Source: a virus
Lineage: Duplodnaviria; Heunggongvirae; Uroviricota; Caudoviricetes
Length of the DNA stretch: 36,019 nt
Reading direction: 5' to 3' (one strand)
IMG/VR virus record: IMGVR_UViG_2537561980_000006
Positions 12,647-15,722 of this stretch are shown one piece after another (position 1 is the first letter of the stretch; every line of letters begins with the position of its first letter). The translations under genes were made by a program, and so were the position numbers. The notes under the pieces were generated by a model. The model ran no database searches. It was not told the origin of the DNA and saw nothing but the letters and a program-made list of their open reading frames with translations.

Positions 12647-12655
12647 CCTGCGCCC

Positions 12656-12731
12656 GGCCCTTTAGCTCAGTGGTGAGAGCGAGCGACTCATAATCGCCAG
12701 GTCGCTGGTTCAAATCCAGCAAGGGCCACCA
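12656..12731 (+). tRNA. tRNA with CAU anticodon (Ile2-lysidine type or Met)
   Basis: Cloverleaf folded by hand: acceptor GGCCCTT/AAGGGCC, loop CUCAUAA, T-loop TTCAAAT, 3' CCA; close to E. coli ileX-type sequence as I recall it. Confidence 0.8.
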
Positions 12732-12732
12732 G

Positions 12733-12809
12733 CCGCCACTAGCTCATCAGGAAAGAGCGTCAACCCTTTAAGTTGAGTGTGCGAGGTTCGAGTCCCCGGT
12801 GGCGGTCCA
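12733..12809 (+). tRNA. tRNA with UUU anticodon (Lys-like) and unusual C at position 33
   Basis: Acceptor CCGCCAC/GTGGCGG, anticodon stem TCAAC/GTTGA, loop CCTTTAA, T-loop TTCGAGT, 3' CCA. Confidence 0.6.
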
Positions 12810-12811
12810 GT

Positions 12812-12887
<76 letters not shown>

Positions 12888-12890
12888 TAT

Positions 12891-12965
<75 letters not shown>

Positions 12966-14014: not shown

Positions 14015-14279
14015 CCTTCCCGGATTGCTGAATGTGGCGTTATGCACGGTTATCGTGCTGACGCTCTTTTTTTATCGTCGCCGTGATTCCAGACATAAAC
14101 CGCTGATGTCATGGCTGGCCTGGCTGCTGATGCTGCTGTATGCCTTTGCGCCCCTCAGCTATCTGTGTGGTCGCCCATTAGCAACGGGCTGGCTGGAAGT
14201 GTTTTTTAATCTGCTGTTCTGCGTGCTGGTAATACGCGCACGCGGGAACGTCGCAAGAATTTTTCCATTGTTGAGGTGA
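14004..14279 (+). CDS. Putative lysis-associated membrane protein (91 aa; holin/antiholin-like)
   Basis: ATG at 14004 after GGAGGAGG; 2-3 hydrophobic segments; overlaps the upstream gene end. Confidence 0.45.
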   Translation: MLSNLPGLLNVALCTVIVLTLFFYRRRDSRHKPLMSWLAWLLMLLYAFAPLSYLCGRPLATGWLEVFFNLLFCVLVIRARGNVARIFPLLR

Positions 14280-14281
14280 GT

Positions 14282-14659
14282 ATGTCGGGTAAATTCAGAT
14301 TTAGTCGTCGCAGCGAAAAGAATCTGGAGGGCGTCAAACCACAGCTGGTTGCTGTCGTTCGCCGTGCGCTGGAACTGACGGAGGTTGATTTCGGTATTAC
14401 GGAAGGCCTGCGCAGTAAGTATCGCCAGAAACAGCTGGTCGCGGAAGGGAAAAGCCAGACCATGAACAGCCGCCACCTGACCGGTGATGCGGTGGATGTT
14501 GTGGCCTACATTGGCAGCCAGGTGTCATGGGACTGGCCTCTGTACGAGAAAATCGCGCAGGCATTTAAGCAGGCTGCCGCAGAGCTGGGAACTGCCATCG
14601 AATGGGGCGGGGACTGGAAAACACTGAAAGACGGGCCTCACTTTCAGTTGAAACGCTGA
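14282..14659 (+). CDS. Endolysin, L-alanyl-D-glutamate peptidase (peptidase M15 family)
   Basis: GVKPQLVAVVRRALELTEVDFGITEGLRS..HLTGDAVDVVAY..GDW resembles the T5-type M15 endolysin as I recall it; RBS GAGGTGAG. Confidence 0.8.
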   Translation: MSGKFRFSRRSEKNLEGVKPQLVAVVRRALELTEVDFGITEGLRSKYRQKQLVAEGKSQTMNSRHLTGDAVDVVAYIGSQVSWDWPLYEKIAQAFKQAAAELGTAIEWGGDWKTLKDGPHFQLKR

Positions 14660-14673
14660 TAACCAGGTGTGTT

Positions 14674-14853
14674 ATGAGCAGAAAACACTGGACACACAGA
14701 ATGCCGCGAACGGCGGCGAAATGGGCACTGGTAGCGATACTGGTGCCTTTTTTATTGGCGGGATGCGTTAGCCTGGATAAGGCGCGCCAGTTTTTTGACG
14801 CTGCTTCTCAGGCCTGCCAACTGATTGATGGCATCCGGCAGTGTATGCAGTGA
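14674..14853 (+). CDS. Small lipoprotein (59 aa), possible spanin-like lysis component
   Basis: Signal peptide with lipobox LLAG-C; located directly after the endolysin gene. Confidence 0.45.
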   Translation: MSRKHWTHRMPRTAAKWALVAILVPFLLAGCVSLDKARQFFDAASQACQLIDGIRQCMQ

Positions 14854-14905
14854 GGTTAGATAAAGTGAACTCAATTCATCCTCGCATATTTATTCAGGAG
14901 GAAAT

Positions 14906-15040
14906 ATGTTTCTTTTCCCAAAGATTTTTAATATTGCTATGAAGTCAAAATTATTAAAAATTCTCAATAAAAAACCTGAGGGCGCATTTGATAATACGGG
15001 AGCGTTTTACTTAAAAGGAAATATTACATACACCAAATAA
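14906..15040 (+). CDS. Small ORF (44 aa) in AT-rich islet
   Basis: Strong RBS CAGGAGG 5 nt before ATG; MFLFPKIFNIAMKSKLLKILNKK..; below ORF-track cutoff. Confidence 0.35.
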   Translation: MFLFPKIFNIAMKSKLLKILNKKPEGAFDNTGAFYLKGNITYTK

Positions 15041-15046
15041 AGAAAA

Positions 15047-15068
15047 GGGGGGAGGTGCTCCCTCCCCG
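15047..15068. terminator. GC hairpin between convergent small ORFs (terminator for the minus-strand gene)
   Basis: GGGGAGG-TGCT-CCTCCCC; on the minus strand it is followed by a T-rich run (TTTTCT). Confidence 0.4.
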
Positions 15069-15091
15069 CTCCTGTAAACGATGGATTCAGA

Positions 15092-15301
15092 TTATATCTT
15101 TGGGTTGAAATTACTATATAAGCTGGCCTCTTCATTAAGCCCGACGCCTTTTAGATCTGCAATGAATGAATCACGCTGTTCTGGAGGTAGTTTAGCCAAT
15201 AATATTCCAATCGTAACTTTTAAACGGGAAATTTCTAAAGCTACGTCAGAAATGGTTTCAACCTTTGTTGTTACATTTAAATTTATATTAAAGCTTGTCA
15301 T
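15092..15301 (-). CDS. Small ORF (69 aa from internal ATG; 79 aa from TTG) in AT-rich islet
   Basis: Minus-strand ORF MTSFNINLNVTTKVETISDVALEISRLK.. with AAGGA RBS before the second ATG; convergent with 14906-15040. Confidence 0.35.
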   Translation of the reverse strand: MTSFNINLNVTTKVETISDVALEISRLKVTIGILLAKLPPEQRDSFIADLKGVGLNEEASLYSNFNPKI

Positions 15302-15722
15302 TGTCATTCCTTTTGCGGAGCCGTCAGCCAAGGCTCTTATTCATTGTTCACACAGTGTCCGAACACTGGAGGGCTGAGGTTGTATTTTAACAATGGATAA
15401 AGCGCATAAAAACCAGGATATTCAACCAGTAAGCGACAAAAGGAGTATTGTCCACAGCATTACAGCAGCCCTTCCGTTGAACTGACCCCATAAAATCGGA
15501 AATTGTTTCTGCTGACTCTCCATTTTTATTGGATGGGCGGTTGTGTGGGGGTCATTCACTGGTGCTGAGCATCGAAACGAATGCAAATCGCTGTCGTGAA
15601 TTGCTTGATGAAACAATGCAGCTTGTCAATGAACATAATCAGCACGCTGTGGCGGCGGGACTGAATGCAATACATGTTATCCCCGAGAGAGAAACGTTTT
15701 AATCGCTGGAGAACGAAGTTCC

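Follow-up and report, generated by a model that had tools for sequence, protein, structure and literature searches.

The 36,019-nt stretch of viral DNA analysed here (the window; IMG/VR record IMGVR_UViG_2537561980_000006, Caudoviricetes) matched a prophage of E. coli ETEC1731 at 100% identity and was kin of the Stx2e phage phiP27. Its gene order was Q, four tRNA genes, two holins (Phage_holin_8 and Phage_holin_3_7), an M15 endolysin, a lipoprotein, a small islet, a 57-aa open reading frame (ORF), an HNH gene, TerS (P27-type) and TerL. The islet is the subject of this report. An earlier note on this DNA had described a small convergent ORF pair in a low-GC (guanine plus cytosine) foreign insert between the lysis and packaging genes, and both points held. 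An ORF of 44 aa (p44, plus strand) faced one of 69 aa (p69, minus strand) across a GC hairpin, and the insert, in a moron slot, was borne out by the GC content (0.35–0.37 over 14800–15400 vs 0.50–0.59 in both flanks) and by comparison with the sister prophage STEC384. The insert was ~610 bp long, ran from the lipoprotein stop (14853) to about 15465 and contained both ORFs; STEC384 and phiP27 were without it at the same position. A moron, in the definition quoted in PMC3594210, is extra DNA of atypical GC with its own terminator and promoter, active even while the prophage is repressed; the islet was extra DNA, deviated in GC and had its own terminator. The "moron / reverse moron" kind of arrangement is already recorded (HK97, HK022), and the new element is a conserved pseudoknot-like leader common to many cargo families.

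Three phage backbones carried the islet: P27-like prophages, prophages encoding heat-labile enterotoxin type II (LT-II; WY517-2, with ParB/TAGT and a different terminase type), and a Citrobacter prophage with a lambda-type Nu1/A terminase. Among complete E. coli genomes it was rare (18 of 5426), and no match was found in plasmids or deposited phages. The earlier note had let its proposal depend on the frames being conserved in related prophages; both the p44 and the p69 frame were kept across the three lineages.

p69 (15301–15092, minus strand), the reverse-moron cargo, was annotated by PGAP as a hypothetical protein (WP_000200355). Its Shine-Dalgarno (SD) sequence AAGGA (15312–15308, minus strand), 6 nt before the ATG at 15301, was conserved across leader alignments. 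Alternative starts at ATG 15307 and TTG 15331 would give proteins of 71 and 79 aa. A tandem ATGACA repeat at the p69 start (15296–15312, minus strand) was present in two copies in E. coli and three in Citrobacter (locus L006, 4995–5012); since its copy number varied, the p69 N-terminus varies by MT units and the start is ambiguous between 15301 and 15307. Against the Citrobacter copy the ratio of nonsynonymous to synonymous substitution (dN/dS) was 0.12 and differences at the three codon positions numbered 8/3/21 (Fisher p = 1e-7). Judged by this codon pattern, p69 is clearly a real coding gene.

p69 matched phrog_6806 (E = 2.6e-31, residues 1–69 of 70), and an exhaustive HMMER search gave a family of 70–73-aa proteins in 8 clusters at 50% identity, with eight residues invariant over 10 members. 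The family profile aligned by hhalign with HK022 gp23 (probability 96.6%, E = 4.9e-10), which is annotated "srb protein; moron gene product". By profile alignment, p69 is a distant homologue of HK022 gp23 (Srb) in the phrog_6806 family. The remark in the earlier note that neither protein was recognisable therefore fell for p69. The database homologues of p44 (P0010 and P0011 from E. coli) were near-identical copies only. No family was found for p44 or p69 in Pfam, NCBIfam or PADLOC, phrog_6806 being the sole useful PHROG match. Structural and profile searches with p69 gave no informative relative, the PDB profile search returning repeat/coiled-coil noise and aRelB at E = 0.21. A candidate reading of "LAKLPPEQRDSF..GLNEEA" in p69 as the first half of region 4 of an extracytoplasmic function (ECF) sigma factor was rejected: hhalign against RpoE aligned as expected at a probability of only 0.57%, and the Pfam/NCBIfam matches were weak. 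The AlphaFold2 (AF2) model of p69 (predicted local distance difference test, pLDDT, 86) had an extended N-terminus and three helices, and no signal peptide or membrane segment was apparent in the sequence; p69 is predicted to be a cytoplasmic three-helix protein.

The 200 nt upstream of distant p69 homologues (proteins 35–57% identical) were extracted and aligned, and this upstream DNA was conserved better than the genes themselves. A degenerate pattern derived from it matched at least 120 viral contigs. The window held a sole copy of the resulting structured 5′ leader (reverse-moron leader, 15389–15293, minus strand; covariance model 55.3 bits, E = 2.5e-11). Three helices were proposed on the minus strand: P1 (15377–15372 with 15329–15324; UCAGCC/GGCUGA in general form), P2 (15368–15363 with 15358–15353; in general form a hairpin with a conserved GGUGGGA loop), and P3 (15336–15332 with 15322–15318), which in general form pairs an SD-like (A/G)GAGG with CCUCU. 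Because the loop of P3 carries the 3′ strand of P1, the two helices cross as a pseudoknot. The true SD, AAGGA, lay 3–8 nt beyond P3, and the spacing to SD and AUG was constant. The window lineage was the most divergent member, with a P3 of GAGCC/GGCUC shifted by one register and a full extended -10 element (TGTTAAAAT). The leader was present in HK97, HK022, ES18, HK633, mEp043, mEp213, SPN3UB and other phages, and its copies outside the window lay in loci L045–L175, among them L164 (1549–1644), L165 (1549–1645), L166 (1334–1430) and L167 (1449–1543).

Across 82 distinct leaders, 93.6% of alignment cells were paired, compared with 28–49% when the partners were slid. One P2 pair was U-A in 59 leaders, C-G in 15, U.G in 8 and unpaired in none; U.G was also recorded at one P2 pair in 54 of the 82. 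P1 and part of P2 were prescribed by the search pattern, and a covariance model and three targeted scans were therefore used to find copies escaping it. Diverged copies found with the covariance model had P2 rebuilt as UGAUG/CAUCA and as GUCCAUG/CAUGGAC. The targeted scans gave P1 as UCAGUC/GACUGA (C-G to U-A) in two distinct lineages; further P1 variants comprised U.G or G.U intermediates in three lineages and one broken pair. One P1 pair ran C-G, U.G and U-A in separate lineages. In a diverse set of 24 leaders, double changes occurred at 8 pairs and 90.6% of cells paired (28–42% when slid). Covariation in these alignments is thus what supports helices P1, P2 and P3, and the structure was placed in the sense-strand mRNA, since its many G.U pairs would turn into A-C mismatches on the opposite strand or in duplex DNA.

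The conserved block could instead act as DNA, either as a promoter or operator or as a linker for cargo-swapping recombination, with no folded RNA involved. The block did extend past the -10 element to include an upstream box and an inverted repeat, and it was common to unrelated cargoes, as would be expected of a recombination junction. Several results also told against a folded leader: the search pattern itself dictated much of the conservation seen over the 82 leaders, P1 hardly varied and its support came from few variants, and minimum free energy (MFE) folding alone gave P1 and P2 with modest z-scores (-1.2 to -1.8). A DNA-level role is nevertheless improbable in our judgement, given the compensatory double changes in all three helices, the G.U pairs at many positions and the constant SD/AUG spacing. 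Possible roles of the leader are to shield the 5′ end of its mRNA, to govern translation by way of the SD-like and anti-SD-like strands of P3, or to sense a signal. Rfam 15 gave no match on the window or five other loci, RefSeq held no annotation under the leader in 228 E. coli genomes carrying it, and a literature search on the leader sequence found nothing.

An AUG just after the SD-like GGAGG was present in 68 of 77 leaders, and in 22 of the 77 it opened a mini-ORF "MADYL*" (AUG GCU GAU UAC CUC UGA). As a peptide the mini-ORF was rejected: its stop and length were not conserved among the 77 leaders, and it is therefore probably part of the RNA motif. In the window the leader AUG was replaced by UUG, and the frame was fused to p69 as the 79-aa TTG ORF. 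The 3′ strand of P1 was embedded in AUGGCUGA (window 15324–15331, minus strand; canonical copies e.g. L053, 4292–4387), and beside this lay GAUUACCUCU, which we take to resemble the 3′ end of 16S rRNA.

Upstream of and within the start of the leader lay the candidate promoter of p69. The extended -10 element TGTTAAAAT (15392–15384, minus strand) was predicted from our own scan and from the alignments, and a TAnnnT hexamer occupied the same column in the 82 aligned leaders. A promoter of its own is only predicted for p69, and one result weighed against it: a sigma-70 promoter scan of the window did not list the site, which is a consensus match only. Further upstream, the box CTTACTGGTTGAATATCCTGG (canonical form TACTGTTTGAATATCAGGG; 15433–15413, minus strand) was conserved in all lineages. 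Candidate identities for the box were rejected on spacing judged by eye, a LexA site because it read CTG-N9-CAG, not N10, and a sigma-54 or PhoP site because the spacing was wrong.

At the other end of the unit, the GC hairpin noted earlier between the ORFs was confirmed by terminator scan and folds as an intrinsic terminator of p69 (15067–15039, minus strand), with the hairpin at 15049–15067 (a 7-bp stem, 6 of the pairs GC) and a T-run at 15048–15039 that overlapped the p44 stop codon. Since the T-run was on the minus strand only, the hairpin is predicted to be a one-way terminator for p69. The structure was retained with differing stem sequences in WY517-2 and Citrobacter, i.e. in three lineages including that of the window.

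The ORFs following the leader fell into at least 24 unrelated small-protein families on at least 120 phage contigs. Only two of the 24 families had Pfam names (DUF1883 and an aspartyl-protease-like domain), the PHROG matches were all "unknown function", and none of the families was matched by PADLOC. Both neighbours were antiparallel in 74 of 118 cassettes, and a same-strand neighbour on either side occurred in 13. A perfect hairpin with a T-run lay on the late strand just past the promoter region in 76 of the 118 (e.g. loci L014, L022, L023 and L167, 1385–1406), so late-strand transcripts that were not antiterminated would traverse the reverse gene in full before they ended. A strict perfect-stem search detected a terminator after only 14 of the 118 cargo genes, which we ascribe to the limit of the method. 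In SW-37-like phages the late-strand partner of a p69 homologue (103 aa, phrog_11851) shared motifs, by eye, with HK97 gp22 (loci L015, 4204–4515, and L164, 1777–2139, both minus strand); a given forward partner may thus turn up alongside more than one kind of reverse cargo, the homology being suggested by eye.

From these comparisons, p69 is very probably an autonomous antiparallel unit in a Q-dependent late operon, consisting of a predicted extended -10 element, a pseudoknot-like leader, an SD, an ORF and a one-way terminator, with a product of the HK022 gp23/phrog_6806 family; the same promoter-leader would drive at least 24 unrelated small cargoes, nearly always antiparallel, in phages of HK97-, HK022-, ES18- and lambda-like type.

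p44 (14906–15040, plus strand; ATG 14906, TAA 15038–15040) lay on the late-operon strand. The strong ribosome-binding site claimed for it was there: the sequence read AGGAGG (14896–14901, plus strand), with a 4-nt spacer to the ATG. The SD was AGGAGG in the WY517-2 lineage also and AGGAGT in Citrobacter, and the frame was intact in all three lineages (44, 44 and 41 aa). ATG, stop position and SD were maintained at about 20% DNA divergence, the sole indel was an in-frame 9-bp deletion, and substitutions were often conservative (L/I, F/L, N/D, K/R). Gene callers other than PGAP called p44 on more than 600 contigs, and analogous small late-strand ORFs faced reverse morons in HK97, HK022 and ES18. 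These sequence features are suggestive of coding, and we consider it fairly likely that p44 is translated.

The competing account is that only the p69 reverse moron is functional and that p44 is merely an open frame arisen by chance in the AT-rich stretch separating the lipoprotein gene from the terminator, carried by linkage. It is a serious alternative, with a probability of about one third in our estimation, and a set of results favours it and counts against a two-part cassette. PGAP did not call p44; its dN/dS was 0.39 and its codon-position differences 9/6/11 (Fisher p = 0.059), a weak coding signal; neutral simulations kept the ORF intact in 23% of cases; and more distant p69 homologues (loci L005 and L014–L023) were without any p44 homologue. 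Identity of the window to Citrobacter was 81% over the p44 region, little more than the 75% of the adjoining spacer; the homologues of p44 were the near-identical copies mentioned above, and its AF2 model (pLDDT 60, low confidence) predicted an N-terminal helix (residues 4–21). What speaks for a real gene is the retention of start, stop and SD, the in-frame indel, the conservative substitutions, the calls on the many contigs and the facing ORFs of other phages. Whichever holds for p44, p69 is independent of it, because those more distant homologues had no p44-like partner.

p44 could also be a small cationic membrane-active peptide of the lysis cassette, disruptin-like or spanin-accessory, made together with the 59-aa lipoprotein. 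Preceded by a strong SD, it came next after the holins, the endolysin and the lipoprotein along the late strand, was basic (net charge +6; grand average of hydropathy, GRAVY, -0.04) with the predicted N-terminal helix, and lay in a cassette with no evident two-component spanin; in Citrobacter the lipoprotein ORF ended 3 nt ahead of the p44 start codon. We regard this role as quite unlikely, since the lipoprotein occurred without p44 in phiP27 and STEC384, a flank query including the lipoprotein gene matched 317 E. coli genomes while the islet was in 18, and the LT-II prophages had a broken or uncalled lipoprotein together with intact p44 and p69. p44 moreover sat inside the low-GC insert with p69. 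As a disruptin-like amphipathic peptide it was rejected: 26% of shuffled sequences reached its hydrophobic moment, which was thus not unusual.

p44 and p69 were linked at 20 of 20 places retrieved with the exact p44 protein, with a 92-aa frameshift variant of p69 in two, and both were intact in LT-II prophages in which the upstream lipoprotein was frameshifted or uncalled. The two were inherited together as one insert. The earlier note had remarked that such pairs are often toxin-antitoxin or phage-exclusion modules. A toxin-antitoxin module could be of type II, in which one protein neutralises the other, or of type I, in which overlapping convergent transcripts are antisense to a toxic peptide. 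The likeness lies in a prophage cargo slot that carries two small genes inherited together, in a convergent layout that resembles some prophage type I systems, and in a noise-level profile match to the archaeal RelB antitoxin 1wmi_B (the E = 0.21 match above). The toxin-antitoxin claim was not upheld, and we now think it very unlikely. Unlike a type II pair, the genes were convergent with a one-way terminator between them that ends the minus-strand gene only, and so were not one co-transcribed operon; searches of Pfam, NCBIfam and PADLOC turned up no toxin or antitoxin domain, and PDB profile searches nothing significant. As a type I toxin p44 was rejected, being not hydrophobic (best 19-residue Kyte-Doolittle window 1.02) and lacking a transmembrane segment, and the promoter scan found no promoter-like site for it on the plus strand. 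Because the p69 terminator stops at the p44 stop codon, a lysogen transcript would give almost no antisense overlap with p44; late-strand read-through is predicted to be antisense to p69, not to p44. p69 homologues also occurred solo, with no p44 beside them, in five or more further phage contexts, the partner was missing from the rest of the p69 family, and p69 shared its leader with other, interchangeable cargoes, at least 24 in all.

The reading that we prefer is that the islet is a two-part accessory cassette, a "moron plus reverse moron" noncontiguous operon, and as a whole explanation this is probable. In the lysogen the reverse moron would be transcribed as far as the hairpin, just where the p44 stop codon lies. 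Once the prophage is induced, Q-modified late transcription would run through the lipoprotein gene and p44 and past the hairpin, which it would ignore because the late strand has no U-run there. The late transcript would then read antisense over p69 and its leader and silence p69, which would put expression of p44 and p69 at opposite times. Judged from the layout and from the phi80 case described below, this sequence of lysogen expression, antisense shut-off by late transcription and opposite timing is slightly likelier to be right than wrong. That the prophage expresses p69 as an effector (of exclusion, defence or host modulation), and that p44, if translated, is its late partner or counter-measure, is a tentative proposal drawn by analogy with phi80, and we hold it rather unlikely.

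Morons are where temperate phages keep host-changing genes (toxins, exclusion, defence), and most of these genes are orphans. If the leader is a functional RNA, a query combining its sequence and structure could retrieve hundreds of prophage-expressed small orphan genes in Escherichia and Salmonella phages, and the leader would be a shared control point that explains both expression from a repressed prophage and silencing in the lytic phase. In the broadest form of the idea, the leader would be a new class of cis-regulatory RNA which, with its promoter, forms a swappable-cargo cassette of HK97-, HK022-, ES18- and lambda-like temperate phages, always backwards in the late operon and silenced by antisense late transcription; its at least 24 orphan cargo families, p69 included, would be a reservoir of uncharacterised effectors, some paired with late-strand counter-genes such as p44. 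Taken together these propositions are possible, though we would sooner expect them to fail in some part. For the window itself, the toxin-antitoxin guess is replaced by a defined transcription unit in an islet that is rare and occurs in LT-II prophages and in a phiP27 relative.

The M15 endolysin (14276–14659) lay upstream of the islet, followed by the 59-aa lipoprotein (14674–14853, plus strand; phrog_7528). The lipoprotein had an LAGC lipobox and a mature part of about 29 aa with three further Cys; no recognisable i-spanin lay nearby, and a match to an Rz-like spanin PHROG was weak (E = 0.03). Its frameshift in LT-II prophages was a 10-bp deletion. In phiP27 and STEC384 the lipoprotein was ~470 bp further downstream, behind another minus-strand moron (phrog_36812). 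The tRNA genes (Ile, Lys, Thr and Gly) lay between Q and the holins (about 12650–12960), and the same slot of phiP27 held tRNA genes and stx2e. In E. coli prophages the p44/p69 islet was a few hundred bases downstream of the LT-II enterotoxin A/B genes (loci L003, 1168–2305, and L035–L044), and in the Citrobacter sp. S-77 prophage, which has the islet, an LT-II-like toxin sat between the holins and the endolysin (locus L006, 6164–7310).

Past the islet, the 57-aa ORF (15476–15702, plus strand, TTG start; phrog_4827) lay just before the HNH gene. It was the 3′ two-thirds of a 98-aa phrog_4827 gene that was intact in STEC384; the window copy was without the ribosome-binding site and the first 27 codons, exactly where homology resumes past the islet (about 15488). 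The right-hand edge of the insert was marked by a degenerate junction hairpin element (CAGCAGCCCTTC...; 15463–15490, strand unspecified), present in a single copy in the window and intact in WY517-2, Citrobacter, STEC384 and phiP27. In those four the element was a GC hairpin, ACAGCAGCCCTTC(A/C)GTGAGGGGCTGCGATAAT, found at module junctions (loci L002, L003, L004 and L006). It may be a mosaic boundary or linker sequence.

Compared with classical morons (lambda bor, HK97 gp15), the islet was likewise extra DNA of atypical GC with its own terminator and a predicted promoter, lacking from related phages at that position. Lambda bor is also reverse-oriented and follows the lysis genes. Unlike Bor and gp15, which are envelope proteins, p69 had no signal peptide or transmembrane segment, and for the bor and gp15 morons a common structured leader is not known to have been described.

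The closer relatives are in HK97 and HK022. In GenBank, HK97 Gp23 is a "reverse moron product" that overlaps convergently with Gp22, a "moron product", between tail genes I and J, and HK022 gp23 faces gp22. These moron labels reportedly go back to the genome records of Juhala et al. in 2000. As in the islet, a small reverse gene within the late operon faces a small late-strand ORF, and the same leader lay upstream (98.5 bits in HK022, 62.2 bits in HK97). Since the p69 profile aligned with HK022 gp23, the islet is taken as a member of the arrangement recorded for these phages. It differed in its slot, which lay between lysis and packaging and not between tail genes I and J, and in its ORFs, which were separated by a terminator and did not overlap by 80–120 nt. 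HK97 gp23 belonged to a different cargo family from p69, and on inspection p44 had no evident resemblance to either gp22. In the accessible literature no functional work on gp23/Srb, "reverse moron" or HK022 srb was found.

In ES18, gp25 faces gp24 (both "possible moron" in GenBank), and HK633 gp65 lies between Rz/KilA-N and HNH genes, the same slot as in the window. Both phages had the same leader (88.6 and 96.1 bits, respectively) upstream of different cargo proteins. A late-strand terminator is annotated for ES18 gene 24, and because it sits beyond the leader, late-strand transcripts must cross the reverse gene. In contrast, the window lineage had no clean late-strand terminator past the leader, only the degenerate junction hairpin at 15463–15490.

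For function, the closest analogue is phi80. According to PMC11364771, the lysogen expresses taiEcA, a reverse-oriented gene that lies immediately upstream of the packaging module and interrupts the Q operon; the counter-defence gene atiEcA is in the Q operon, and Q expression lowers TaiEcA. The same study describes a tail-assembly-inhibition defence in a "noncontiguous operon", with AtiSalB and TaiSalB shown to interact as a cognate pair (PMC11364771). Several differences weigh against carrying this function over to the islet. The p69 profile aligned to TaiEcA with an hhalign probability of 0.19%, BLASTP of p44 against AtiEcA gave no alignment at E <= 100, and the PADLOC defence models matched neither p44 nor p69. 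Along the late strand, Ati comes after tai and the 5′ ends are divergent; p44 comes before p69 and the 3′ ends are convergent. Tai has 204 aa and p69 has 69, and the leader motif was absent from the phi80 region. The likeness is one of layout: in both, a reverse gene interrupts the late operon upstream of packaging beside a small late-strand gene, and an exclusion module is suggested by analogy only. If the analogy is true, the moron/reverse-moron pairs of HK97 and HK022 may be effector/counter-effector pairs, like Tai/Ati. BstA-type systems with self-immunity are a further comparison for such pairs.

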